DNA of 64,000 bases. Source: Botryllus schlosseri. Its lineage: Eukaryota. The notes beneath the pieces were generated by a model. The model searched no databases and was not told the DNA's origin. It saw only the letters and a list, made by a program, of their open reading frames with translations. The position numbers and the translations under genes are program-made. The stretch spans positions 12,898,001 to 12,962,000 of the forward strand of contig CM119371.1 in assembly GCA_051294905.1 (NCBI GenBank), in the 5' to 3' direction. Position 1 is the stretch's first letter. Each line of letters begins with the position of its first letter. Below are positions 20,655 to 56,300 of the stretch, piece by piece.

Positions 20655-21500
20655 AGTCAGTCAGTCAGTATGCTTTATTCATCTCACCAACAAACACATG
20701 TAAATTGGTATAGATTGGGAGACGACGGGGGACCGGTAGGTCTTAGAATCAGTCGCCACCCAGCGGAGTTATATATGAGTAGATATGGCAAGATCAATAC
20801 TAACGAACTTATGACAGTTAACCAATGGACATAAAAATAAACAACAGATAAAAGTCATGGAAGATCAGCAGTAAGCATCCAAGCATAGTACTGGTATACA
20901 ATACACAGTGTGCACAGCAAAAATATGCAACAAAGCAAGAACAATGAAGACGAACCAAGTGGAACAGTATTACATCACAGTCAATGCAAATCATGGACCA
21001 TGACAGTATTTTTCAACAACAACAACAACGACAACAGAGGGAGGTGTAGCAAGTGGAACAGTATAACATCACAGTCATTACAAATTATACCTATTTCAGT
21101 ATTTTTCAACAAGAAAATTGCGGTATTTGATCTTGAACTGGTTGAACTGCATCGATCTATATTCTTCTGGATGGTTATTCCAGACCTTGGCACCCTTGAA
21201 GTTGAGACTGTTTTGTGACAATTTCTTAGAAACTTGAGGTAATGTTATTTTACCTTGAGAGCTAGATCTAGTGCCATATGAGTGAACCGAAGAAAATGTA
21301 TGGAAATAGTTCTTGAAAGATTTCCTATTAGAGTAGTATATTTTATGCATCATTTTGGCTAACTCGTAGTGATATAGATCTTTCAGTTTTAGAATGCCAA
21401 GTTTTTTATAGCCTGGTGACAATCGTTCACGTCGACCAAATCCACAGATGGCTCTAACAGCATGGTTTTGCAAAACTTCTAGAGGTCTAAGATAGGATTT
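20655..21500 (-). mobile_element. 5'-truncated L2/CR1-type LINE 3' end
   Basis: ORF 21096-21473 resembles a post-RT C-terminus (LQNHAVRAI..LGILKLKDL); aataaa followed by an (ACTG)n tail; absent from copy A. Confidence 0.8.
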
Positions 21501-22137
21501 TGAGACTGAACACTTTTTTTGGTAAAGACTTTAAATTTAAACACTTCGCAACACTTCTAAGGGTGGAGGCCAAAAAGCTGAGTAAAAACATCCTGGATTT
21601 TCGCCTAATCTGCGAGTTCCAAGATCTCCCGATTTAGAAGTAGATGATCCGCACGCCAAAACATTGGATGTTCGTGCGAAGTTAGTAGATCTACAAATCC
21701 AGGATGTAGGACGCTATTGCGTCAAAATGACGCAAAATGTAGTGATCCGTGGAAGGTTGCCATGTCGACCCATCGACTTCGTAGTAAATATTATGCTTTG
21801 GCAATGCTAATTGAAAATGTCGTCGATTTTGGTCATGTGCTATGAATGCCATCGTTTCCTAGGTAGACTTATGAAATTGATTTGAAGCCACTTTGCAGCT
21901 TTAATGCATATTACTCTGTAGTTTATTCACAGTTATAAGTTCTAAAAACGGCATTGCAAACTCTGGTACTGTTGTTATTACTGTATGTAGTATGGATATT
22001 TTGGACATCGTAGATGGCAGTTCGGACGACTAGAATACAATAAACACTTACGTGACCTTTGACACGGACCAATCAGATTGCAGTGTGATGTAAACAAACC
22101 GCGACATAGGGCAAACTTACTATTTGTGAGCTCTTAG

Positions 22138-22944
22138 TAGAGATGGGCTTAACCGATATTTTGCAGTAGCAGTTACGAACTGCTACTTTCGAAAACTTAA
22201 CTGTGATTTTTAACTGTTACTTTTTAGCAGTTAGATTGGAGGTAAACCCTACGTCACAATTGACCGCAAATTTAGTCGAAAAGTGCAAATGTATTCGTTT
22301 ACTTCTAAACTCGCCGATATCGAACCTCAACTTTAATCTAACAATTAATTATGATTGAAGTCATAATCGCACAGAGTCGTCTAGCCTCATCTTACTGTAA
22401 AGCTTGAAGAAAATTCATTCATGGAGTAGGCCTATATTTACAGAACCGCCCACCTTATGCCGTTCAAGTTTATTCATACAATTTCATCACTTCAAAACAT
22501 CACAAGACTGCAATACAATGAATGACAGGAAGATCCCGAAACGTCTAGGATAGTCTTTGAAATCAGACAACCACCTGGGCCTAGGCGATGTAAAGAGGAG
22601 GCATGCACACGACAGAAATGGATTTAATTTTGCAACCGAAGATGTCATTCAGTCTGATTGGGTGGTGGTTGAAGATGAGTACTGCTATTGTCACCAGTGT
22701 GATATGGTGGTCTGGTTGAGACTGTACTGTAGTGTAGTGGCACTCGTTTCTCGAATAATGAAACACACCAGAGAACTACCACTATTCCATCCGGTAGTCA
22801 AGGATAAATGTAGGCTATATTGAATGTCAAGGTGCTTATCTGCTATTCTGTTAACTGTGATTTGGGTTAGCAGGTAACTGCTACTGCTACTTGAGAAGCT
22901 TAACTTTTACTTTTTAACGGTCTGCTATTTTTTTCACATCTCTA
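22138..22944. mobile_element. hAT MITE inserted in the left TIR of the ISL2EU-type element
   Basis: TIRs tagagatg / catctcta; exact TSD gctcttag; the right TIR shows the empty site. Confidence 0.9.
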
Positions 22945-23303
22945 GCTCTTAGTCTTATGTCAAAAAGGTGAACGGATGAAGTCATAGTGCAATTACATTG
23001 TATCAGGCATATCTGATTTTGATGAATGGTAATAATATAGATCTAGTATGTATTTACAGTAATTCTAAACCAAAATATCCAGCAATGGTGGCAACTACGC
23101 AGCAGTATGATGTGTCCTAAAATGAATGCATTTTGATAACATTACGGATAAAGCCCAGCACTTAGCTGTTTCTTGTTATTCGTATACTGTAGGATTGCGA
23201 TACCGCATATTTCGACTGTTTCGTGGGCTAAGGTCTTAAGCAACATATACAAGCATATATTGTCTTCAGAAATTTATGATTTACATTGATTTGATTAGAA
23301 GCT

Positions 23304-26040
23304 ATGGAGATGCTACCAGATTTTTTTGATTTGAGTGGTATAACATTTTCTCCTAACGCCGCGGTAAAAGCTACGAAGTATTTCATGGAGTGCTATGTAC
23401 ACGATTTGGGCATACAGATTGAGGAGACAATCCACTCTTATTGTGGAAGCAATATTCTGGTGAGCGGGCGATGTTATCGCAGTATGCGGAAAAGTGAGGT
23501 GCCACATTCGATGGAAATCAAAGTTTTTGGAAAATCCATTATTGATTCATCTTGCACTTGTAAGACAGGGTAAATATCAAAACTGTCGTTTCTTCAGAGA
23601 ATCTTGCAATAGATATTGTTGATTTCTTTCAGACTTGGTTCTGATATATGCTCTCATGCATATGCATTAATAAAGACAATTCAGTACCTGAAGCTTCAAG
23701 GACTGAAAGACATCCCAAGGGATTTGTCATGCACAAGCATACCGCAATCATGGAATGTTCCACGTGGAGAAAAAATTCAGCCGGCACCAGTGAGCTCAAT
23801 CGTGATTGCCAAGCCATCTATTGATCGATATCGCAACCCATCTACTCCGTCTGCCTTAAGGTAAATTTTACTATATCTGGAGCCTTCACCTTTCTAATAC
23901 GCTTCCGAACATAACTAATCTTAGGACATCTGCACCTGGAAAACTGTTCATTCAACAAATCGGACATCTGAATGAGCTTCAAGGCACACCACTGGAATAT
24001 ATTGTGAACAAAGATACACCGTTGGTACCCACTGACCACGGCATCGCACAGTTAGGATCAGTAGCATGTTATCAGGTGATCAAGATATACGTTTACGATC
24101 TATACATTGGAACTTGAACAATTGCAGGATAATAATTTTCATTAAATTTTGTTTTTAATCAACTTATCTTGAAATAGAGTGTGCAAAGCACAGATAGTCC
24201 AGATTTTGTTGAGTTGATAGATAATACTGCATGGTATGACACCGGTCAAAATTCTATACTCTTTGATTCTTCCGATCAGTCGTTCAATATGGATACGGTG
24301 TCGTGCAATCCTTCTTGTTGTGGAGCAGTCCGGCCCTGACATTTGACGGTGTGCAGAAGGCCGTGGAGGAATATTCAAATTTAGATTCAATTTTTGATAT
24401 CTGACTCAATGGTGAATCCCTTGTCTGCCATAATAGCATCTCCTGCTGCGATATAGCCCAAGTCCATCATTTCTGCAATTTCCTGTATAATCCACATTGC
24501 TCGGTAATATTTTTATCTGATATGCTTCCGGTGAATAGTTCTCCCACAAAAATCACTGCACTGCCTGGGTCACAACCCACCAATCCTTTTAAAATCGTAT
24601 GTGATTTATAGTCCGAATAAAACTGTGATTGTAGTCGCAAAGAGCTTGGGGGTTGAGTCTTCAGCTCGGTACAGTCAATAATCACTATAGTTTGTGGAAA
24701 TTCACGAATGAATTCAGATGGTGCATTTTTTAGAATCACATCTCTATGTGGCCAGATTGAAATTTTGATTAAGCAGCTATACATGTGATTCACCCAATTG
24801 TTGAATATTATGCTTACAGTATTGATAGAAATTCGAATTCTGTGGGATAAGTCCAACAATTGGAAATTTCTCCTCAGTCTTGCCAATGTTAATAGCAGAT
24901 GATCTGCACTACCATGCAGGGATAACTCGAAGCGATTATCCGGATAATTCACATTACCATCACATGTCAGAAGTTTATGTAATGCCGAAAAAGAATTTGG
25001 ATGTAGTCCAATATAGAATTTCATAAGTTTCTCCGAATCTTTTGACATCATGATACTTTGAAAACTGAACTTTGCTAGCATTAGTTCGTTTGTCAAATTG
25101 TTATTTTCCTGGCGGAGTTTCCTGTTCGCTGCGTCTAACCCTTCTAGGAATTTTATTCTTGTGTTCTTTCCATCAATTTCCTCTTTCATACACTGGATCT
25201 GAGCAGCTTCACATAAGACGTCCAATGAGCCTGTAGAAACATATTTTTATTTTACAGAGCAATTCCGCTGTGCGGGCACCTGTCAAGGCATACTCCTCCA
25301 ACTCCTGCAATGTTTCACCACTACCAATAGCATCAACTATCCGCCTCCCTACTGAATATAACGGTCTCAAGCAATTTCAAGCCATTACACATCACCAAGC
25401 AACAGCACTAGAGCGGAATACTAGGATGAAAACAATAAGCCGGTTGTGGCACCATGAAAGAAAGCTCCGTCTGACCGCATCTCAGTTTGGACTTATTTTG
25501 AAACGGAAAAGTGTGCCTTCTAAATCATTTCTCGATTCCATATTTAAGCCACGGAAAGTTATTGCTGCATCAGTCAAGTATGGCCAGGCCAATGAACGAA
25601 AAGCTCGGCAACAGTACAGCAGATTGAAAACTGTCCACACTCATAACTGCGGCTTGGTAGTCAACCCAGAATTCCCATTTTTGGGTGCCACTCCTGATGG
25701 AACAGTTTGTGACGGCGACGGATTTGGAATTATGGAAATCAAGTGTCCATATTCTGCTCGGGAAATGTCAATTGAGGAAGCTGTCGCCAAAATAAAAATT
25801 GGCTGGCTTACTATGTCCCCCACGACTGGCTACTGTCTTCAACCTGGTAGTATATATTATTACCAAATCCAAGTTCAAATTTTGGTAACTGGTGCCCCTT
25901 GGTGCGACCTTGTTGTCTATACTAAAATTAGCTTGGAAGTAATCAGAATATACCCAGATATTCCTACAATTCCAAGACATGCTATCTCGCCTATGCCACT
26001 TCTACAATGAATATTGCCAGCCGTACATACGCAATCTTTA
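23304..26040 (+). CDS. Spliced SWIM zinc finger + YqaJ/lambda-exonuclease protein; predicted exons 23304-23569, 23633-23860, 23925-24075, 25258-26040 (probable 1-bp frameshift near 25970)
   Basis: GT-AG junctions join in frame; SWIM CTCKTG/LGSDICSH; YqaJ motifs RLTASQF, LGATPDG, EIKCPY, YYYQIQ. Confidence 0.85.
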
Positions 26041-26713
26041 ACTACTGCAACATTGTTTTCCATGTTAAATTAATACACTGATTGCTTGTTGAATGATTTA
26101 ACTGACTGACTAGGCTGATACTGTGAATGAGGTATCTCAACCATCTCCGATGCTATCTCTTGCACTTCATTAGGCTCGTCAGGCATATCTTGATTCTTGC
26201 TCGGAAGACTTGTACTGCTGAAAATGGAAGGTAAAAAGTGATAATTTTACATCATTTTAGGAAACAGATATAGTGTAATCTTGCAAAGATTTTGGATACC
26301 TTCAATAAGAAAATGGTAGGTTGGGAATGGGGACATAATCAATCACCTGTTGCCTGCTTTACGCCTCTTCCTTGAACGTATTTCCTTACCATCATGTGGT
26401 ATTGGATAGGGATACTGCTCCGTAGGACCAATCTGATTGTGAAAATGCTGAGGAAAGGAGAACTAGACTAATAATTCAAGCAATGGTTTGGTTTTTGGAC
26501 AATGTACCTTGGAGCATACATACGAGAATCTTCTAATCGAATCAGGATTTAGCTGACTATGAGAAGAGGACGTCCGCAGGCCTTTATCCATATTTTACAT
26601 TCTTCCATGAGTGTTTTTGGCTTTGGAAAAGGTGTGAACTGCACATCAGGATTACGATCTGGGTAGTGACTGTCACTGTTACAACGGCCATAGGAACAGT
26701 GTTTATGCGGCAT
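24142..26713 (-). pseudogene. Spliced THAP + HTH + DDE_Tnp_4 transposase; predicted exons 26713-26508, 26447-26347, 26217-26111, 25230-24142; about 3 frameshifts
   Basis: THAP MPHKHCSYGRC..FPKP..WIKACGR..VCSK/HF; DDE motifs IIDCTE, MADKGF, RIHIER. Confidence 0.85.
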
Positions 26714-27261
26714 TTGTATTGATAGATTCAATAAATAAGCTAGAAAAAATCAGGAATTTACTACTACATACGGTAGCCTATATATGATGTAGTGGTGTAG
26801 CGTGTAGGAAGCTTATAGGATTCCTTAAATAGAACACTTATCACTTTGAGCGCGCATAATTAATACCACAACCTATTCTGACTCAAGCCACCACTAACAT
26901 ATGCAATTCAGTACCGCTATCCTGCAGTATACTAATACTGGTAGCAAGAAATTCCACTTCTTGCTTCACCCGAAAAGTTGTTAAATACTGCTGCGTAATT
27001 GCCTTCATTGCTGGGTGTAGTAGGCTAATTTGAAAAGAAAACCGTGATTAGAATTACTGTAAATACATACTAGATCTATATTATTACCATTCATCAAAAT
27101 TAGATATGCCTGATACAATGTAATTGAACTATGACTTCATCCGTTCACCTTTTTGACATAAGACTAAGAGCTCACAAATAGTAAGTTTGCCCTATGTCGC
27201 GGTTTGTTTACATCACACTGCAATCTGATTGGTCCGTGTCAAAGGTCACGTAAGTGTCTAT

Positions 27262-28243
27262 TGTCATGGCCAGGCATTACTTGGCAAACATATCGGACTC
27301 ATTTGTAAAATACCTAGAAAATGAATTCGTTGACCGCTACAGATTTTACAAGGGAGCTACGGTAATTCTATTGGACATGATTAAAGACAGCCCATGGTTG
27401 GATGTACGGTGCCAAGCTTTGCACCCCGTGATGCAATTACTCTGTGCTCTCCGATTTTTTGCTACGGTCATTTTCAACAAACAGATGCTGACTTCATTGG
27501 TGGCAGCCGGACAACTGCACGCCAAATCATCCACTGCATTTCTCGGGCATTATCAGAGAATAGAGAAAATTTATCCCACGATTGGATGATTTGTTACAAA
27601 CAAAGAGTGATTTCTTTGACATAGGTGGAGTTCTAAATGTTATCGGTTGCATTGATGGTACCCATATCCCAATAAAGTCCCCCGGTGACTCTGTACCAGA
27701 AAAGCTTATCGTTGCAGGAAAGGATATTTTTCTTCGAACTGTCAAATGGACTGCAATGCCAAGAGAATACCGGTAGTGACTAATGCTGTTGAGAAATGGC
27801 CAGGGAGTACTCATGACTCAAGAACTTTTTCAAATTCCGTTTAAAATACAAGCTTGGCCAGAAAAAAATACAATGGGATTTTGCTGGGAGACAGAGGCTC
27901 TATGCTCTAAAAATGTACCTGATGACTCCATTACCAAATCCACAGGCTGCACAATAAAAAAAATACAGTTATATGCACTCAAAGACACGCGTGCTGATCG
28001 AGCAATGCTTTGGCGTTCTCAAACAGCGTTTCCAGATGTTGCTAAATCCTATGCGAATGCAAATCGAAAACACCATGCTGGCAATCATTGCAATAATATG
28101 TTTGCACAATTTTGCTACAAAAACCAATTAGCCAGTACCTGATATTGCAGTTACTCCCAAGGAAGCTACGGATATAACATCTGAAGTTGGATACAATGAC
28201 GCAATAGCCTATCTTGAAAATAAGATCAACACATATTTCTACT
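27262..28243 (+). pseudogene. Harbinger (HARBI1-like) transposase, frameshifted; the N-terminus lies at ~21992-22041, left of the nested element
   Basis: RYRF, QLLCALRFFAT, IGCIDGTHI, WPGSTHDS, LLGDRG, TRVLIEQCFGVLK across frames. Confidence 0.9.
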
Positions 28244-30841: not shown

Positions 30842-32962
30842 TTGAGTACCGGTAACAAAATATCGCTAATATCGCTAACATGTAATATTCACTATCTTTA
30901 TAATGAGCCTCAGATAAGCAATTTCAATCTACAATGTCATAACTATTACAAACCTCGCCGAATTTATATGCTTGTGTACCTTAATCTATACTTTAATCCT
31001 GGTGGCGACCAGGATCAAGAAGCAGCGGTCTATACTCAGTCGGTCCTGGTAGAATCTTACTAATCTACCTTTCTGGTCCGCAGAAAATCCAGCAACGTGC
31101 AAAATCCCCAGATCTTTTATTTGATCTGTATTTTTGGCCTCCACCCTAAGTGTTCAATTTTGGATCACAAATCGTGTTCAATTTTCCGGGTTGAGCAACA
31201 CTTCTAAACTTAGAGTGTAGTGATGTGATCTCGAACGTTGTAATAATAATCAGATAGAATTGGCTGCATCCATTTTACAAGAATTCGTTTATCAGTACCA
31301 AGCAAATTAGGTTTCGGTTCGCATGCATATGGGATAAAAGGGATAGCGTTCTGTTGGGGTGGTTAAAAACATTTATTTTTCGGGACAGAGAATTTATGAC
31401 CGCGGTATTTGAAGAGATAGCGCAATATAAATACGAGTGTGACACGTCAAACAGTAAATTGACGGAATACAAGAAAACGCAATGTTCTATCAAGTAAGCC
31501 GTACCCCAATTGTGGAACAGCATCTCGCCGGCTATCCGTCAGTCGTCCACCATGTCCGCTTTCAAGTCAAAATACAAGAAATTTCTTCTAAATGAATACT
31601 AGCGAGCCTTCAGGACTACCGTGCCGCGACCTACCATCGACCTCGTCCTCCGCGACATGCCACCTCATTTTGTCGCTTGCGTCTTATATTATCTGCATTA
31701 CTTTTCATTCAGTGTGCAACTGTGCTTGCCTCTTTTTTACTTCGCCTAGGCTAAGGTGGGTGTCTGATCTTAAAAGCCATACTCCAAGTTGTTTCGACAC
31801 CCTCCTATCTTTTCTTTGTATCGCAGTCTTGTGATTTAAAATGATGAAAATGTTAATAGATTGATTGATTGATTGAATATATGAGGAAGTAGGCTAATTG
31901 ACTTCAAAGTAATGGCGCGCAGTGACACCGGGGCATAGGTGCCAACCCTTAAATGTATCATGTAAGAGGGTTTTGAGCGGTCGGTGTGGATTTTTTTTAA
32001 TATTATTAAGAATAAATTGTCGAGGCAAATTATTCTGATCTTACAAGGCAAACCGAAGCATTTTAGACTGACCAAGAAATTCGAGATATTGATGACTGAA
32101 ATATCATTCCGACGCACCAGCGTAGCCAGAGCCGGCAATATTTCTGTATACATATCATATATATTGCCATAAACTATATAGATCATTTTTGCGACCGGTT
32201 TATTTGTTAAAGGTTTTCTTCGCGCTTTCCGCGATCTAATGACGCATAAACTGCATCCATCGTCTCGAAATCGCAACACTAAACGGTCTTGGGTCGGCGA
32301 TCACACGGCCGTGCAGCACGACGTCTAGACCATAGAAAAGGATAATCTAATGAATACGGAAAATCATGTGGTGAGATGGTATAGTGCAGAGGTCTCAAAC
32401 ACGCGGCCCGCCAGAGCATTTTGTGCGGCCCGCGATGCCACATTAGATTTTGAAGTATTTTACAATATGTAAGTGCCAGATATATCCTTTAAGGTTTAAA
32501 AGTTTAAATAACTTCTCAAATTGCCCAGGAAGCCTGAAACTATTCCTGAAACTTAACCATCACATCAATTACAGACACTACCATGCAGTAGAAGATTTAC
32601 TATTTCGTCACATTTACAATTCATGACGATCAAACTATAGATAACTAACCGGATAGATGCGCAACATGTGATTCACGGTCGAGTGATGCGACAACGGCCG
32701 ATTTGTTGGCACTTCATAGCATGAAACGGCAACATAATTGCTAATCCCATAGATGACGATCCGAGCGTTCAAATTAAATAAAGTTGATCTTTTCTGAAAG
32801 CTACAGTCAAGCTGACTGTGATAGTATACATTAAACTTTCATCAGGGTAATGGAACCACTCCGAAATAGCCTTCTAAATCTAAAAATCGGCATTGTTCTA
32901 ATCGCAACCATGCAAGGACCGCTGTTATGGTCATTGTGCTGCGCCGTTGCGATTGTTTAGAA

Positions 32963-44337: not shown

Positions 44338-47300
44338 ATGGCGGAAAGGCGTCAATATGAAGATTCTGATGTCGCTGATGTCCCTTCATCATCATCAAAC
44401 AAAGGTACCAGTAAAGAAATCCTGAATCATTAGCTATCTATTCATTTGATCATTATTATCAAAATGCGATACCATAATTTTCCATGTATAGGCCTATTGC
44501 ACAAATTTTTACAGTTTTTAGTCTTATGATCGGGGGGGCGCATTATGCTTGGGTATAATAAGCCTTGAAAAATATACCCCTAGAAATAAAACTTGAAATC
44601 ACACCTTTGTTCATGTTTGTTTTCAATTGAGCATGACATTCAGCCATCATGGCTAGTATTTTATATTATCAGTTATACCCCCTACCAGTAAGCGAGAAGC
44701 GTGTTGCTAATTAGCTGTAGTCGTCTGCACTGCACAACAGCACGCGATTCTCTGCGTTGGTTTGCCGATTGTAGAGGGGACTGGGTCTATTTAAGTGTAT
44801 TTTCAAGTTCGGGCAGCTGTCAATTTCATAAACTGTAAAATAAAAAAGGTGGTTGGTTGATATTTATTACATTGTATGGTGGAATTTTCGGTTGCAAATC
44901 AATTACAGGTTCAATCTGCTTACAGTAGAAAAATATCGCGATTTTTTTTACAAATTAGTATGCTCAATTTACCCTAATTTTATGGGAAAATTGAGTATAC
45001 TGTCTAAATTGCACTTGAAGCCACCCTTATCCCCATGTTATACCCGAATGAATCATTGTATGGGAGAACTGAGTATATTTACAGGTTTTTAAAAATGATA
45101 CTGGAACGAGATATGTTATATAGCTGCTTGAACAGAAACTTTTCAGAAGGAACAGCGGAACCAAATATTTCGATGTCTAATTTTCACTAATTGTTTGCAT
45201 CCAAATCAAATTTGAGAATCCCTCTTCTTTCTGAAATTGGTGCTTTCACTTTGAAAACTACTTCATTGAATGAAATAGAAAATATTCTCAACATCAATGA
45301 TTGAGGGATAGGAATATATGCAACCCGTTGGTTGGCTGCTATGTTCATATCCAACAAAAACTGATGTGTGAATGTTCCACCGCCACCCATCATATTTCCT
45401 ATCTGCCCTAGAAACTTTCTTTGTCTGTCTTGTATAACGAGCCCCACCAACTCCTTGATTCCCTCTTTCTGAACTGTTTCAACTCCCCCAAGCCCATCTC
45501 AGCACTGTATTTTGACCTCTTGAATTTTAGCTTTCATAACTTCTCTCCTTCTTAAGTCTGGTCATGCTTTCTTCTGATGTCAGCACCTCATCGGTTATGA
45601 CCAAAACAAGTAAACATGCCTCCTTTTGGCATTATGATTAGCTTAATCATTTCTGGTTTCGCTTTTCATTGCTTGAGAGACTACTGTAGTACTAGCCTGA
45701 GTCAAACTTTCCATCTCGTCACGTCAACGGATTCTTGCTGTTGGGGCTACAACTTTCTGTGTGTCGCTTTAATAAGCTTCGTTATGAGGGTTTCATAGGG
45801 ATTCCTTCCAGACTCTCTTATAACAGCTCTTTCCTGTCTTACTTTTTTGACAGCCTGATCCAATTTCTGTGGTGCATATTTAGGGGCTCACTTCTTATGA
45901 TACCTGATCATGCCTATTACTGTTTTAACTCTCTGATGTCATAACAAGATTCAAAATAGTAGGGTCGAACCTCTCTGATGATGATGCGACAAAGAACGTC
46001 CGCGTTCAATAGTATACTCAATTTACCCCAGTGGTTCTTAACCTTGCCTCCAGCGCCCCCCATCCTCCCAAGGGGCGCTGGTGATTTTTAATGCGACGGA
46101 AACGCTCAGGGGGCGATATGGGGGGCACTAGCCTCAGGGGAGAATGGAGGGCGCTGGAGAAAAATGGCTTCGCAGTAGATGAGTAGATGATGTGGTGGTC
46201 GGACATATCCTTAATGAGTAGTAAGAGCAATTTTACACCGAAAACTTCGTTATATATAGCTTACAAAAGACATATAGGTTTAATTGTCAATGGGCGCCTA
46301 AATGACTGGCACCGAATGTTCCTGTCTTGGCAATCTGAACCCCAGAAGACGAATTCCATCTGGGAGGGAAAATTATATGCCGGTGAAGAAATACCAATTT
46401 GAAATCGTGTGCGTCTTTCAGTTGTGGGCGACAGGGATATCTAAAACTAGATAGGCTATTCCTGTTGGGCGATATCCCTGGTGGGCGATTCTATATTTTT
46501 TGATATAGCAGACATGAGGTCACGAAATAACATCATGCAACGAAGTCATGCCAACGGGTTCGCCCGCCCGAATATGTTTAATTATTAGTTACGGGTCCTA
46601 CAGTTTCCAAGACACTTCACAATGTTCGCTCTAAGTTTTGATGAGTTTGCGCACACTCAACAACTCACTACGCTGACCCTTAGAAAACAGTGCGTAACGA
46701 CTAAAAAAGATCATAACTTCGGATTTGTTGTGCGCAACGTAGATTTTCCGTGCGCAGAGACCGTGTCAGCTTAGATGGAACATTGAACCTCACTCAGCTC
46801 TACCGGTAAATCTGGTAACGTGAGCAGAGTGGACAAGAAATTGATAGCAATATATATGCAATTCCCGATCTTACTGACCGATTTTATCATGAATTATCGA
46901 AAGTTTTCGCGCTTCGCACTGGCTCGCTAAACAGTACAGCTGATTCCGTGGCAAAATCGAACAACGTGATGGGGACGGTCGGGTTTTCACCCTATGGGAG
47001 CCCAAGACCCAAGTTTTTTGGGGGGCCTGACGAAGTGTCGTTTCGTTCCTGCCAACGGGTACACGTCCGAAGATGTATGATTATTATTGAGGGGTCCTAC
47101 CTTTTCAATCACAAATCACTCAGCTCTACCGGTAAATATGTTTACGTGAGCAGAGAGAGGATAAAAATTGATCTCAATATACATGCAACTCCCAATCAAA
47201 TTGACCAATTCAATCATTAATTAGTGAAATTTGTCGCGCTTGGCGCGTCTAGGCGAGAATAGCTGCCTTAGGAAATGGACACCCAATGTAGATGACTAGT

Positions 47301-50300
47301 ATCAGCAAATAGCGGATAGCCGAAGGGGGGTCTGGGGGCGAAGCCCAGCGGCGGTTGCTTCTGATTTCGCGGTCAGTTATAACTGGTACATCCCACAGAA
47401 TTTTTATCTGGTCGTTTTCTGTCACTGGTACTGGCCCAGTCAACAAAATGGGAAGCGATCGCCCGGCGTATTACGCGCATTCGATGTCAAAATGATGCTT
47501 CAAAAGAAACAATTTTCGCACTTCAGCCGCAGACTCATTAACCCTTTTGTTGCCGTTCATTAACCCTCTCGCCACCGCAGCTGACAACCGCTAGTAACCC
47601 TATCGCTACCTGAGTCATGGTTGCTTTCTGGCAGATATATTAACCTTATGTTGAAAGACATCACAATTTCACAATATGTTTTCATTGTCGTGTTAGTCAT
47701 ATTACAATCCAGCACGAGCATACATTCAAAATACCGGTCAAATACAAACAGACGGTCATATGAAATGCATAAAACGACACAGTCGAGATACAGAGAGATC
47801 TTCTTTCCTGGACCAGTTTCATACAACTATTCCTGCTCTTGAATTAAAATACAGACAATATCTGGTTTATCAAACAAGTCTGTGCCTTGGCGGGAAGAAT
47901 AGGATCAAGGCAACGCGGAGCTACCATCAGCGTCCAGCTCACTGTGTGGCACGCTAACTTGGAGTGTTTTTCTGATACTTTTTGCAGTAGGTTGTGATCA
48001 GCTGGGACAGCCAGTTCAATGAATAAGCATTCTCTTTTCTTTTTTAGTTTGACGATTATATCCGGGCGGTTGCTCCTGATTTCGCGGTCAGTTATAACTG
48101 GTACATCCCACAGAATTTTTACTTGTTCGTTTTCTGTCACTGGTGCTGGGCTGTAATCATACCAATTTTTTGTCGAAGTGGTGATGTTAAAATGTTTGCA
48201 TAATTCAAGATGAATGTAGTGACCAATCATATTGTGTCTCAACTCTCCATGTGTATTCGGTATTATTATTATATTCTTTTAATCACAGTAAAACTGGTAG
48301 ATACACACATAATCCGGGGAGCAACCTGCCCCCAAAGGAAAATGGCGAGATTGGAGTAGATTTTAAAAATTTCAGTAATACATTCAAATTGTTATTCCTA
48401 TGCAATACACGGAGAAGTCAGATTACAGAATTGCAGCAGATGAAGAATTGGCAAGGGTTACAGAGCAGAGGTAGAGATGATTGAAGATGAAGAATCGAAA
48501 TTACAGAAATTATGCTGTGATTCACAAGTGTAATTTTAGTCCAGTGGTGCATTCAAGGCCTTCCGAAGAATGTGCACAGTGCCCAATAATGTGATCTTCT
48601 GGATCATGTCGAATCGAACGTTACCCGGAATTTGTTGGATATGCCTCATGAGTTTTTTGCTCACGACCCCTGTAGCACCAATGACTATCGGTACAATGTT
48701 TATTTTGCATCGCCACATTTTCTCACATTCCATTTTGAGGTCTGCGTATTTGGAGTGTTTTTCTGATTCTTTTTGCAGTAGGTTGTGATCAGCTGGGACA
48801 GCCAGTTCAATGAATAAGCATTCTCTTTTCTTTTTTAGTTTGACGATTATATCCGGGCGGTTGCTCCTGATTTCGCGGTCAGTTATAACTGGTACATCCC
48901 ACAGAATTTTTACTTGTTCGTTTTCTGTCACTGGTGCTGGGCTGTAATCGTACCAATTTTTTGTCGAAGTGGTGATGTTAAAATGTTTGCATAACTCAAG
49001 ATGAATGTAGTGACCAATCCTATTGTGTCTCCATGTGTATTCGGTAGCTGCAAGTGCACCACAGCCGGACATGAGATGTGCTACAGTTTCATTTTGGTTG
49101 TGGCACATTCTGCATTTGCCGTCCGTGTTTTGCTTCAGAATTCTTTTCCGATAGTATTTTGTAGGAAGCGATTGGTCTTGTGCTGCGAAAATGAATCCTT
49201 CGCTTGCCGGTTTCAGGCCAGAGCTGGATAGCCAGGTCCATGAAAGCTCGTCTACATGGGGCTGTGAAGTTAACTTCTTGTGCTGTCCATGAAGAGGCAT
49301 CGATTCCCATATCGTTTCTCTCATTTTGAGCATTGCATTTTAGTACTGAACTCGTGCTGCTTTTGCTATTGTTGTGGGTTTGGCAACAGTGTTTTCAGCA
49401 GTGTACAGATTAGCTGTTTCCATGTTGACTTCTCTGACGTACTTGTCGTGACGATAGCTCAGAGATTTTGTTTTGCGCTGTTTGTCTTCCTGTGCAATGA
49501 GTATGCAGTAAATGTTTTCGCTGTTGTTGATGTACTGTGACAAGCCAATGATTTCTGTTTTGAAAGTTTGTTCAATTTCTTGTAGTCCTCGACCACCTTT
49601 TTTTCTGGGGATGTATAGTCTTTGTGTATCAGATTTTGGGTGATGCATGTGGTGCATTGTCATCAATTTTCTCGTCTTTGTATCCAATTTTTTAATTTCA
49701 TCTTTGCGCCAGTTCACCACACCAAAGTTATATTATTATTTTCTTTATTCACAGTAAAACTGGTAGATACACACATAATCCGGGGAGCAACCTGCCCCCA
49801 AAGGAAAATGGCGAGATTGAAGTAAATTTTTAAAATTTCAGTAATACATTCAAATTGTTATTCCTATGCAATACACGGAGAAGTCAGATTACAGAATTGC
49901 AGCAGATGAAGAATTGGCAAGGGTTACAGACCAGAGGTAGAGATGATTGAAGATGAAGAATCGAAATTACAGAAATTATGCTGTGATTCACAAGTGTAAT
50001 TTTAGTCTAGTGGTGCATTCAAGGCCTTCCGAAGAATGTGCACAGTGCCCAATAATGTGATCTTCTGGATCATGTCGAATCGAACGTTACCCGGAATTTG
50101 ATGGATATGCCTCATGAGTTTTTTGCTCACGACCCCTGTAGCACCAATGACTATCGGTACAATGTTTATTTTGCATCGCCACATTTTTTCACATTCCATT
50201 TTGAGGTCTGCGTATTTGGAGTGTTTTTCTGATTCTTTTTGCAGTAGGTTGTGATCAGCTGGGACAGCCAGTTCAATGAATAAGCATTCTCTTTTCTTTT

Positions 50301-53300
50301 TTAGTTTGACGATTATATCCGGGCGGTTGCTCGTGATTTCGCGGTCAGTTATAACTGGTACATCCCACAGAATTTTTACTTGTTCGTTTTCTGTCACTGG
50401 TGCTGGGCTGTAATCGTACCAATTTTTTGTCGAAGTGGTGATGTTAAAATGTTTGCATAATTCAAGATGAATGTAGTGACCAATCCTATTGTGTCTCCAT
50501 GTGTATTCGGTAGCTGCAAGTGCACCACAGCCGGACATGAGATGTGCTACAGTTTCATTTTGGTTGTGGCACATTCTGCATTTGCCGTCCGTGTTTTGCT
50601 TCAGAATTCTTTTGCGATAGTATTTTGTAGGAAGCGATTGGTCTTGTGCTGCGAAAATGAATCCTTCGCTTGCCGGTTTCAGGCCAGAGCTGGATAGCCA
50701 GGTCCATGAAAGCTCGTCTACATGGGGCTGTGAAGTTAACTTCTTGTGCTGTCCATGAAGAGGCATCGATTCCCATATCGTTTCTCTCATTTTGAGCATT
50801 GCATTTTTGTACTGAACTCGTGCTGCTTTTGCTATTGTTGTGGGTTTGGCAACAGTGTTTTCAGCAGTGTACAGGTTAGCTGTTTCCATGTTGACTTCTC
50901 TGACGTACTTGTCGTGACGATAGCTCAGAGATTTTGTTTTGCGCTGTTTGTCTTCCTGTGCAATGAGTATGCAGTAAATGTTTTCGCTGCTGTTGATGTA
51001 CTGTGACAAGCCAATGATTTCTGTTTTGAAAGTTTGTTCAATTTCTTGTAGTCCTCGACCACCTTTTTTTCTGGGGATGTACAGTCTTTGTGTATCAGAT
51101 TTTGGGTGATGCATGTGGTGCATTGTCATCAATTTTCTCGTCTTTGTATCCAATTTTTTAATTTCATCTTTGCGCCAGTTCACCACACCAAAGCTATATC
51201 TCAAGACAGGCACTGCAAGACTGTTTATGGCATTGATTTTGTTTTTGGAATTGAGTTCAGTTTTGAGAATTGACTTGAGCCTGCTAATGTATTCCTTTTT
51301 TAGACTTGATTTCATTGCAGCATGTTTAATGTTGTCGCTTTCACAGATCCCTAGATATTTATAGTGATCTTCGGCATTCAATTCTGTTATGGTTTCACCC
51401 AGTTTGAAAGTCATGTCGCCAGTGCTGGTGACTCTTCCACGTCGTATGGTAAGTTTTGAGCATTTATCCAAGCCAAATTTCATTTTTATATCTTCCGAAA
51501 ACTCATGAACAATTTTCATTTGGTTATTCAGGTCTGCATCGGATTTCGCGTACAGTTTCAGATCATCCATGAACAAAAGGTGATGAATCTTTTGACCTTC
51601 AGAGTTTGCTGCTTTTTTCATCACATATCCTGTTTCATTTTTTCTCAGCAACTCACTGAGTGGAGCTAAACTGAGGCAGAATAGAAGTGGTGAGAATGAG
51701 TCGCCTTGAAAGATACCATTCCGTATCTGAATTGTACAGGTTTCTGTTTCGCCTTGGTCATGTTTGATCAACAGTTTGGTATGCCAATTTTTCATTGAAT
51801 CTTCAATAAATCTGATGATGATCGGATTCATTTTGTACATACGCATTGTTTTCAGTATCCATGTGTGAGGGACTGAATCGAAAGCTTTTTTGTAGTCTAT
51901 CCATGCCATGCTGAGGTTAGTGTGTCTCCTCTTGCAGTTTTCAAGAATGGTTTTGTCAAGGAGCAGGTGGTCCTTACAGCCAAGGGCACCTTCCTTGCAT
52001 CCTTTCTGCTCAGGCGGAAGAAGGTTTTCTAGGTGTTTGTAGCTTCGTTTTGCCAGGATTTTGGTCAGTGTTTTGTACATGGTTGTCAGGCATGTTATCG
52101 GCCTGTAGTTCTTGGGGTCCCTGGTGTTTTCATTTTTTGGAATAAGATAGGTGATCCCTTGTGTGAACCAGGCTGGGATCTCGTGCGAGTTGGTTGAGGA
52201 TAAAAGCTCATTGTAGGTCGCCGCTAGGTAATTATGTGTTGCAGTTAGTTTTTTTAGCCAAAAGTTTTTGATCTGGTCAGGACCAGCTGCTTTCCAGTTC
52301 AGTGAACTTTTTAGGGCCTCCTTGATTTCTTGTTTTGTGATTTCTGACCATTGTTGTTCTGGTGTTTGTAGGTGGTCAGTGTGGAGGTCTTGTATCCAAG
52401 TTGCATTTGAGTTGTGCAATTTTTCGGTTTCCCATATTTCCTTCCAAAATGATTCCAGTTCTGCAGTGGCTGGAATTTTGCTGCTGGTAATTTTGTGGTT
52501 TGACTTTTGTTTCATCATTCGGAAAAATTGGCCAGGTTTGCGAGTAAATAACAAGTTTTGGCGATATTGTGTTTCACGTTTTTTATATCGTTTCAATCGT
52601 TGTGCTTTGGCGCATATTCTCATTTTCAATTCCTCTTGCAACATTGTCACTTTTTCTGTTGACTGCAGTTTTGTTTGGTGCTCCAGTTCTATTTTTTTAC
52701 TTTATTTTTTACTTTGCGGGAAACATTTCCTTTTTTTAGTTCCGAGAGTATCGCAACATCACACCTTAGTTTTGCGATTTTGTTTTCAATTCTGCGTTGC
52801 CAAGCTGGCGTATGGCTTCCCCTTTTTTTGTTGACAGGTCTTGGTATTTTGCAGTGCCTTTCTGAGATAACTGCCGCAGTGCTGTAAATGAGGTTGTTGA
52901 TTATCGTTAAGGGACATTGTGGTCTTTCTCCTTTTTTGTCATTTATTGCAGGTAGTATGGTTTCTGTCAAAATTTTGTTCGCTACTGCAATATCAGTTTT
53001 CAGTTTCTTTGTAATTTGTAGGTCAGGTAAATTCACTCTGTCATTTATATCCAATGTGGAGTTCATTCGGTCGATAATTTGATTTTTGATCTCCAATTCT
53101 AATTCTGTGTCCATGTCATCAACGTTAGGTGATGTTGGTTCATTCGGGTGCCCGATGGTGTTTTGTGATTCTACCTCTGGGATGTTCAGGTCGTCAAGTG
53201 GTTGTTGCGGATACAGGTCATCTTGGCCGAATTGAAGTTCTAGTGCCTCAGAGTTTTCTGTGTTTTTGTCACAAATTTCGCTCTCGATTTCTGCGAGTTC

Positions 53301-56300
53301 TTGTTCTGATAATTTTTTCATTACACAGCGTCTCATAGTTGCCAGGGTATTGGCAGTCATGGTTGGAGAGTTGTTTGTTCTCTCTTTCCATTTTTGAAAA
53401 GTTCCTACGGTTACTCCTGCCGAGTTTTCAAGTTTGGCTAAGAAGTAACATCTCATTATTTCTTTATACTCTTCTTTACTCCATCTGTGTCTCTTCTTTT
53501 TTTCTTTTGCAGCAGAGCTGTTTTGTGGGCCACAGTTCGGTGTTGCACAGGCGCCATGTTGAGAAATATCTTCTCTTTGGTGTTCCTGTGTGGTCGGAGT
53601 TGACGAGTCCTCTGGGGTCATCCGCTTGGTCCCACGGCGGGTACGTCCAGGTGCGATATATCCAGATCGTTTCGCAGGCATCCACAGCAGTGATGCGTCA
53701 GTGCAGAAGTTAGGTTACGTTAAAGTAATTAATTAATTATTAATTAATGCTTAATACAACCAAATACTCCAATTATTATTATTATTATTAATTACGTGCC
53801 CTTTATTTTCCCATACAACAGCTCACTCAACGCTACTGGTAAATCTGATTACGTGGGCTGGGAGGATAAAAAGTTTATAGCGACTTATATGTAATTACCA
53901 CCTATTCATTCATGCATTATAGAAATTGTTGGTACCTAGGACGACCAGGCCACACAAACTTTGCTAACCATCGAAATCACGCTACGGGGTTCTTGGGGCG
54001 AAGCCCTCAGAAGTTTGGCTTATCACGCTATGGGTGCGCAAGGCAATCGTTTTTAGGGTGGGTTGACGAAGTGCTGTTACGGCCCTCCCTCTTACTCATT
54101 TTCTTTATTACATTCCTTACAATATGAGGTTGGGGGGCGCTGGAGCACGATAGTTTTTGAAAGGGGGCGCTGGAGGAAAAAAGGTTGAGAACCTCTGATT
54201 TATTCCATACCTAGTTTATACTATACCCAAATTACCCAAAATAATATTCTTCAAATTAAAACTTACTCTTACCACCATTTACAAAATGCATTGCCATACC
54301 TTGTAGTATGATCACCCATCACAAACTTAAGCAATATTAGGATATACAACCACGATTTTTATGCTGTCTGCAAAGAAGTTGAAAAATTGTGTGAAAAATG
54401 AAAAACTTACAATTCCGCATTGAAGCTATAATCTGCCTTAACCCACGAAGTGCGACGATGAAGACATCGTGCCATGTAACGGATTAATCAGCCGCGACAG
54501 CTAGAGCGTGAAGGTCCTGTGGAAATTTCAATAAATTGCTGCTCCATTACGGCGGCGTTATGAAGGAAATGGCTGCGGCCAAAATTGTTTCTTCGTTTTG
54601 CCCTTCAATTTGAGACCACATCCTTTTTAGAGCGCAGTGCCCCTTTAACGTCTCTTTCCACTGCCTGGTTGTGCCAATTATAATTGAGCCTTAATGGCGA
54701 TGGCCTTAGATTTTCTTGCTCGAGATATGACTAGTTTTTGATTTCTGGTGGCTGTTCCATATCTTTTAGATTCAAGTTGACAATTTGGTGGTTTGATTTA
54801 GCCTTGATGTTTATAATTGGGATTTTAAACAATCTGATTCCAGTGCCAACGTTGTTTTTAGGTTTTGGTTCGTTAACATATCCTCCTTCAAAGTCGTCAA
54901 TTGGAAACTGGTATTCTGTTTGATCTGCTCATAGTTGTATTCTTGTTAACTGCAAGTCTTCTGAGGCCTTCATCATCATCCCTGGGCATTCCCAGAAAAC
55001 ATTTTCCGTATGTGCAAAATATGCCTTTTGCTGTAGCACCGATAGTGCAAGTTTACGAATTCGTGTATCAGAAGGCTTTGTAACATGGGAAACTATGTTG
55101 TAGAAGTTTTTAGCGCCATCAACAATGGAATTGTGCAGTTGATCTGTCCCACATAGACCACAGATGACTTTCTCGAACATGGAGCCTCAAAATTCGGCAT
55201 GTTCTATGTGGGATTTTAACGGCATCATTGCGATGCGATGGGGATCACAGCTATGAGTACGCCTGCCACAGTCATCATCAGTTCATCCACATATTTTGTC
55301 TGTCGTGTGCGAAATATTTTTGAAATATTGTTTTCGCTAATCATCTCGTACGTGGTGCAAAAGACCTAATCGGTTATAAGCGCCACTATTCTGACTTCTC
55401 CGTGTATTGCATAGGAATAACAATTTGAATGTATTACTGAAATTTTTAAAATTTACTCCAATCTCGCCATTTTCCTTTGGGGGCAGGTGGCTCCCCGGAT
55501 TATGTGTGTATCTACCAGTTTTACTGTGAATAAAGAATATAATAATAACGGACTTGTGAATCACAGCATAATTTCTGTAATTTCGATTCTTCATCTTCAA
55601 TCATCTCTACCTCTGCTCTGTAACCCTTGCCAATTCTTCATCTGCTGCAATTCTGTAATCTGACTTCTCCGTGTATTGCATAGGAATAACAATTTGAATG
55701 TATTACTGAAATTTTAAAAATTAACTCCAATCTCGCCATTTTCCTTTGGGGGCAGGTTGCTCCCCGTAATATGTGTGTATCTACCAGCTTTACTGTGAAT
55801 AAAGAATATAATAATAATAAATCCACATATTTTGCCGTCACTGTCTATCTCTTTTACGACATCTCAAGAAAACTAGCTTTTCTGCTTTTAAAAGTAGCAT
55901 TCCTGCAGAGTGCTTAATAATTACCATATTTTGCCATATAAATGGTATTTTTAATCACCTAATAATAAAGAAATTTCACTCTAGCCTCAATCATTCAAGG
56001 AACCGGTGGCGATGTGCACTTTACGGTGAAAGACCAAGCAAAATTCAAAGTGGTGCTTGATCAAAGTACATCACGCCGTAAAGGTGAGTTTATTTGAATA
56101 TTTTCCCGTTCGCATCGTAGTACCTGTATGGTTGTTGTAAGAAAATACATGATGTCCACGAAAATGTTCATCAAAGAGCTATATCGTTGCAGTTAAATGA
56201 ACGACTCATTCAGGTGTTGAACCTCGAACCACCATCAGCATTTCAAGAATTTAAAGCAATGCTAAGTCGAAACCTATTGTGCTGCGCACAAATTACTTTG

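Follow-up and report, generated by a model that had tools for sequence, protein, structure and literature searches.

Two facing genes in a 64,000-nucleotide stretch of Botryllus schlosseri DNA (hereafter the window) have exchanged their last, enzyme-coding exons, so that each of these exons lies inside the last intron of the other gene, an intron which for the minus gene is predicted. Both genes sit in an ISL2EU transposon spanning positions 22042-27259 of the window, a broken copy of a family which has intact members. We read it, with a probability of roughly 80%, as a broken ISL2EU copy from a clade with swapped transposase and nuclease exons, in which each gene splices out the catalytic exon of its partner. 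Conservation of order, whole reading frames, selection, terminal inverted repeats (TIRs), the AT duplication and membership in one clade are what we count as shown in favour of this explanation. The first-pass annotation had proposed this mutual nesting with in-frame joins; gene models of the window and of intact copies bear it out, and its coordinates and exon models all check. The features are as follows.

22040..22041, no strand: left copy of the AT target-site duplication (target A/AT/T), from paralogous empty sites
22042..23068, plus strand: left TIR (about 215 bp) with an 807-bp insert inside; a fainter match runs on to about 23108
22138..22944, no strand: non-coding insert in the left TIR, 807 bp, its inverted ends and its duplication each 8 bp long
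23304..23569, plus strand: exon 1 of the plus gene, with ATG and the first half of a SWIM-like CxC..CxH motif (gene model; intron 1 joint in contigs)
23633..23860, plus strand: exon 2 of the plus gene (gene model and contig joint)
23925..24075, plus strand: exon 3 of the plus gene, ending at a phase-0 GT donor common to the clade (model and contig joint)
24076..25257, plus strand: last intron of the plus gene, 1182 nt, containing the antisense DDE exon (X1 and X2 contigs, joint 24072>25255, GT..AG)
24142..25230, minus strand: last exon of the minus gene, with coiled coil, HTH_Tnp_4 and DDE_Tnp_4; two 1-bp losses in the window copy
25231..25257, no strand: 27-bp spacer in which the splice acceptors of the two strands stand back to back
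25231..26110, minus strand: predicted last intron of the minus gene, 880 nt, containing the antisense YqaJ exon (in frame in L031, L032, L033 and L035)
25258..26010, plus strand: last exon of the plus gene, a YqaJ / lambda-exonuclease-like PD-(D/E)XK domain; in intact copies the end is near 26040
26111..26217, minus strand: exon 3 of the minus gene, with acidic linker and phase-1 donor (model; phase identical in L051)
26347..26447, minus strand: exon 2 of the minus gene, with the end of THAP and a basic stretch
26508..26713, minus strand: exon 1 of the minus gene, with ATG and THAP zinc finger; 5-bp insertion in the window copy
27048..27259, minus strand: right TIR (repeat search and printed copies)
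27260..27261, no strand: right copy of the AT target-site duplication (printed copies and empty sites)

Removal of the plus introns (63, 64 and 1182 nt, all GT-AG) leaves 465 aa in frame in the window model, the YqaJ tail being frameshifted by 1 bp near 25972. Pfam recognises YqaJ, the domain characteristic of the second ISL2EU gene, at 1.8e-14, and the PD and ExK motifs are present. The CxC-x8-CxH motif, kept in the window, P0001 and P0002, is the ground for the label SWIM, a putative zinc finger; the Pfam SWIM model matched neither the separate exons nor any of three full-length relatives. The spliced protein is collinear over about 440 aa with proteins of Ruditapes (residues 2-450, 39%) and Haliotis (residues 10-448, 35%). 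Two tandem YqaJ-like domains were seen in P0006, P0007, P0011-P0014, P0018, P0022 and P0025. The modelled minus introns measure 60, 129 and 880 nt, again all GT-AG. Here Pfam finds DDE_Tnp_4 (7e-18 and 2e-10) and HTH_Tnp_4 (7e-08); THAP, at 5.5e-4, falls under the cut-off on the frameshifted piece in the window and rises above it in clade members P0067, P0082 and P0136. THAP, HTH and DDE, the components of an ISL2EU transposase, are all present, although the window gene itself is broken by a 5-bp insertion near 26561 and 1-bp losses near 24394 and 24469. By hand count, L031 has residue spacings of 22, 29, 30, 18, 23 and 3, fitting the PHIS pattern D(19-29)K(29)D(18-40)D(11-19)P(18-28)R(3)E.

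The coding region has 141 matches across the 495-Mb genome, divided between subfamilies A (96-100%), B (84-85%) and C (about 74%, with many internally deleted copies), plus a deleted group comprising L049 and L050. The order SWIM(+), DDE(-), YqaJ(+) recurs in all 20 copies fetched, which are the fullest among these matches, and THAP(-) lies beyond YqaJ in 17 of them. Together with the metagenome loci described below, this shows that the layout is not a one-off. An internal inversion confined to the window copy was rejected on these grounds and by geometry, because a flipped middle block would fuse THAP with YqaJ and SWIM with DDE. Five further copies were modelled (L031, L032, L033, L035 and L036, the misaligned minus model of L036 being left out of counts). 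Both reading frames are whole through GT-AG introns in L031 (475 and 499 aa) and L035 (476 and 496 aa), which are 85% alike; L032 and L033 retain a whole minus frame and carry a stop in the plus frame, and L036 has a whole plus frame. Four copies thus hold a minus frame of 496-499 aa via phase-matched GT and AG, and L035 does so with predicted minus introns enlarged by about 1.0 and 0.6 kb, both frames unharmed. Between L031 and L035, dN/dS is 0.13 for the SWIM exons, 0.22 for YqaJ, 0.08 for DDE and 0.09 for THAP, and the antisense frames contain 11-26 stops each. Both genes are under purifying selection. Since both frames are whole in these two copies and dN/dS is 0.08-0.22 in all four exon groups, the layout cannot be ascribed to chance. 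The 27-bp spacer is identical at 26 of 27 positions between subfamilies A and B, and other non-coding stretches reach 67-84% (L031 vs L035).

The pre-mRNA overlap of about 1.9 kb proposed earlier agrees with our measurements, being 1869 nt from stop to stop (24142-26010) and 2035 nt from donor to donor. The spliced coding sequences do not overlap, and each mRNA is complementary to an intron of its partner. Two further suggestions of the first-pass annotation were not supported. The genes were called inseparable, yet in L049 and L050 the DDE exon is largely gone while the SWIM exons and the plus acceptor remain. The layout was also said to be a possible limit on silencing by double-stranded RNA; compared with convergent genes, nesting would oblige the pre-mRNAs to overlap by at least 1.87 kb, and would therefore add complementary RNA.

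A repeat search placed inverted repeats at 22037-22138/22944-23068 and 27048-27264, flanking both genes, and the same termini were found in 15 copies printed end to end, of which 14 have AAT..ATT flanks and one was printed one base short. The insertion lies in a decayed Harbinger transposase gene (21556-22041 and 27260 to about 28996), of which at least 11 near-identical copies with the same short broken frame occur elsewhere. Of the other Harbinger copies, 12 of 12 serve as paralogous empty sites, each having a single AATT at the place where AAT-element-ATT stands in the window. This makes the duplication AT and puts the limits at 22042-27259. The TIR is 214-215 bp long (98%) in L032 and L033, within the ISL2EU range of 6-259 bp, and about 300-325 bp (85-89%) in subfamilies B and C; it begins with AG (AA in the window copy), departing from the GG tendency of ISL2EU. 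The similarity of dispersed copies, at 96-98%, shows mobility in the recent past and no more. The 807-bp insert was absent from the other element copies searched, and is probably a hAT-type MITE; part of it (22138-22944) matches window positions 31721-31864 in reverse at 77%. Elsewhere in the window, a 144-aa open frame at 21096-21530 (minus strand) has no Pfam match but resembles the tail of a LINE reverse transcriptase, and positions 47000-55000 show a strong T-over-A skew, down to -0.41, across several kilobases.

Joints were examined in four of 24 listed sequencing runs; X1 and X2, both from one study, are RNA only by our guess. All three plus introns are removed in X1 contigs and the 1182-nt intron in X2 contigs, with short sides of 25 and 21 letters at the long-intron joints; unspliced contigs in these runs span both long introns at similar depth. 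A genomic copy without plus intron 3, considered as a source of the joint, was sought with exact-match patterns, which miss diverged copies, and the one match proved unrelated. Splicing of all three plus introns is thus observed with modest support. The splicing proposed in the first-pass annotation is accordingly upheld for the long plus intron, in contigs from two runs, probably RNA, of a single study, and was not recovered for the exact minus joint (26111>25230), absent from all four runs; the 880-nt minus splice is predicted. Five raw RNA reads of run X23 run through THAP exon 1 to 26580 and continue at the start of the DDE exon of subfamily C. As this subfamily has lost THAP exons 2-3, the reads imply a GC-AG join over about 710-760 nt holding a YqaJ remnant, and no such THAP-to-DDE join was found in the genome. 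The minus acceptor therefore functions in vivo in a sister subfamily. Alternatively, the join may be a deletion in an unsequenced allele, because a short word is common to both ends and the GC donor falls in exon 1. Subfamily C (L038-L048) is itself a non-autonomous derivative of 3.55 kb, present in many copies, in which both genes are broken and splice sites are shifted (a 68-nt intron 1 and the THAP GC donor), and appears the most transcribed in X23. A pile of X21 reads at 25829-26086, against a depth of about 1 elsewhere, may correspond to the 3' end of the plus gene, shortly before THAP exon 3 is reached; behind neither stop was a standard poly(A) hexamer found.

The missing minus joint, and a methionine about 14 codons into the DDE exon, would also fit a minus gene left unspliced across YqaJ, with a separate small THAP protein, DDE expressed alone and only the plus gene nested. 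We regard this as highly improbable. Against it stand the phase-matched frames of the four copies and of L051 (described below), a THAP exon 3 that reaches its donor without a stop, and exon starts only 27 bp apart; the X23 reads, moreover, use the DDE acceptor, and some clade members carry THAP and DDE in a single frame on contigs barely longer than that frame. One such case is a 505-aa THAP+DDE protein on a 1616-nt contig, from an oyster-labelled cluster in which a 352-aa DDE-only form, starting at the THAP/DDE junction of the window, occurs on 167 contigs.

Beyond this family, 74 metagenome loci were fetched with a transposase alignment and scanned by purpose-built profiles. The interlocked order, or part of it, was found in 32, a convergent order in 26, and 16 were unclassifiable. 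The former include 10 in which DDE has antisense YqaJ upstream and antisense SWIM downstream, seven with YqaJ upstream only and 15 with SWIM right after DDE; they derive from 10 assemblies, two of which supplied 19 of the 32. The latter comprise 20 convergent loci and six with THAP right before DDE. In the Botryllus genome, the top 30 DDE_Tnp_4 loci are convergent in 23 cases, interlocked in six and unclear in one. The interlocked order is thus not the general ISL2EU layout, and the possibility that it is standard for the group was rejected. L051, from another assembly, has the full order: its DDE (355 aa) and YqaJ (273 aa) exons are open, 37 bp separate its acceptors, and its THAP introns, donors and acceptors agree in phase. 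Of 16 interlocked-class loci, 14 have a GT after the same point in the SWIM linker; of 10 convergent ones, none does. Acceptor spacing varies from 27 to about 140 bp across the clade; strict acceptor filters were passed by 3 and 8 of 17 loci, many of which are decayed. Convergent relatives are unbroken and in frame across THAP-DDE in 9 of 14 and across linker-YqaJ in 6 of 8. Two other arrangements were encountered: P0010 (735 aa, Logan), a third combination of both catalytic domains in which HTH-DDE_Tnp_4 is fused with YqaJ, and L110:1377-2106, where a THAP exon lies upstream of SWIM exons in the same orientation and would belong either to a second element or to a THAP-SWIM join. Among viral contigs, eight pattern matches included no relatives; plasmids gave no match and therefore no bacterial outgroup.

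A single branch parts interlocked from convergent elements in every transposase and nuclease tree. Its support is 100 (SH-aLRT) in a 97-row transposase tree, where coverage retained 56 of the 74 metagenome loci; 100 (quick) and 84/100 (careful) in a 90-row tree from which 22 short, long-branch or near-duplicate rows had been removed by hand and 15 added; 98/100 in a 34-row tree under a mixture model; and 100/97 in a 40-row nuclease tree. The window transposase groups with convergent THAP-DDE/YqaJ elements, apart from Harbinger. Proteins on the interlocked side are labelled bivalve, abalone, chiton, Lingula, Glandiceps, eel and cod; from their placement, the mollusc-, Lingula-, Glandiceps- and fish-labelled elements would be expected to share the layout, and horizontal transfer may explain the spread. 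The layout is kept across transposases only about 45-50% identical.

The direction of change has weaker support. Were the interlocked layout ancestral in ISL2EU, with the intron-poor convergent one derived, the Harbinger outgroup should attach where the careful 90-row and 34-row transposase trees place it, at or inside the interlocked rows; one quick 90-row tree roots among convergent rows instead. However, the branch to the outgroup measures 4.5-8.6 changes per site, support values are low and an AU test rejects neither alternative root (p 0.40 for both). In the nuclease tree, whose outgroups are much closer (one of eight misplaced), the interlocked clade sits within the convergent rows (85/88), and convergent lineages are far more diverse. 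An ancestral interlock is hence improbable to us; the transposase tree being unrootable, the nuclease tree suggests that the layout is probably derived within ISL2EU.

Under the favoured reading, that of swapped exons in a derived clade, each gene would be transcribed inward from beside its own inverted end. The long repeats are nearly identical, and each start codon is 235-335 bp inward of them, which makes inward promoters likely. Polymerase would cross the catalytic exon of the partner in antisense, to be removed as an ordinary intron, giving predicted products of THAP-HTH-DDE (about 499 aa) and SWIM-like-YqaJ (about 475 aa). The layout would have arisen once, from THAP-DDE> <YqaJ-SWIM to THAP> <YqaJ DDE> <SWIM, by two neighbouring blocks trading places, each on its original strand, and not by inversion. 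The simplest route would be tandem duplication of the middle block followed by loss of the two outer copies, equivalent to moving a single exon; the two exon starts would thereby come to face each other across the duplication joint, the present site of the paired acceptors. Thereafter the layout would persist mainly by lock-in, reversal needing another block swap, and mutual damping of the genes by collision or antisense pairing would be a likely side effect.

We favour such lock-in, with damping as a by-product, over usefulness of the layout. The contrary case, in which the interlock is a selected regulatory device whose obligatory antisense of the partner's exon damps or alternates the genes and balances transposase with nuclease, can draw on the persistence of the layout across these divergent transposases, the conserved donor position (14 of 16 loci) and the near-identity of the paired acceptors relative to other introns of the same subfamilies. 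However, a locked-in accident predicts conservation equally, two splice signals within 27 bp account for that of the acceptors, and convergent ISL2EU families thrive alongside in the same genome; we consider the device somewhat unlikely. A broader proposal seems unlikely to us as well, namely that of a widespread undescribed lineage in molluscs, brachiopods, hemichordates and fish, of one permutation origin, with reciprocal nesting as a coupling device and antisense balancing the enzymes.

Whether the layout has been noticed before is a separate matter. No description of it was found in the open literature searched, nor in the accessible text of PMC4482050, PMC4122938, PMC9179366, PMC12730594, PMC9587614 and PMC3673617. 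The first-pass annotation, which knew of no such description, thus agrees with the literature searched, though curators may know of the layout. There is a fair possibility, somewhat short of even, that the Repbase/Dfam coding annotation of some ISL2EU/IS4EU families already contains the layout, curators being aware of it and papers silent. Oyster- and teleost-labelled proteins fall within the clade, and Table S2 of Han 2015, in the accessible part of PMC4482050, lists oyster and zebrafish families with full THAP-DDE and YqaJ proteins of like size; full-length proteins would have needed a spliced model, if any listed family is interlocked.

The interlocked ISL2EU is, then, a real, conserved, clade-defining and apparently undescribed variant. 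ISL2EU falls into two classes of architecture, cleanly separated in the phylogeny, and two cooperating genes can trade catalytic exons, with two introns gained in one step, and still survive. Convergent and interlocked elements offer a compact (4.4 kb) natural pair for studying the effect of obligatory antisense transcription on transposon output and silencing, while the intact L031 and L035 make the role of the YqaJ nuclease open to assay. The layout also explains the THAP-less transposases of about 350 aa and short YqaJ pieces which ORF-based annotation yields in this clade.

ISL2EU (IS4EU) is a group in the PHIS superfamily, according to the accessible text of PMC4482050, PMC4122938 and PMC9179366. 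The first of these, in its accessible part, defines the group by an AT duplication in A/AT/T, a TIR of 6-259 bp and a usual GG start, and gives protein sizes and no gene order. The recognition of the element as ISL2EU holds on its target duplication, TIR length, THAP-HTH-DDE protein, YqaJ gene and PHIS residue spacing. Protein sizes within the listed ranges and an animal host are further likenesses (PMC4482050, accessible part); the window family element, at 4.36 kb, is shorter than the ISL2EU mean of about 4.84 kb. Unlike in described ISL2EU, the window genes are interleaved exon by exon rather than placed side by side. PIF/Harbinger membership was rejected, the duplication being AT and not TWA and the second gene YqaJ and not Myb/SANT. 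KolobokE, as far as the accessible text of PMC9587614 goes, is likewise a DDE transposon with a lambda-exonuclease-like nuclease, but has its nuclease downstream of its transposase domain, duplicates TTAA and has a transposase of another superfamily; membership in it was rejected on the AT duplication and nuclease placement. Also close are the convergent ISL2EU elements of the same genome (L126-L155) and of metagenomes (such as L065, L070 and L074), which share the four domains, homologous proteins and genes running outward-in, but are ordered THAP-DDE> <YqaJ-SWIM and mostly intronless at both junctions. In En/Spm (CACTA) elements, tnpA and tnpD are nested by same-strand alternative splicing from a single promoter, and interleaved opposite-strand host genes of Drosophila are unrelated neighbours. 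These cases have in common with ours a coding sequence within an intron of the gene for another product; the window differs from them in that its two genes cooperate within a single element and, on opposite strands, are each nested in the other.
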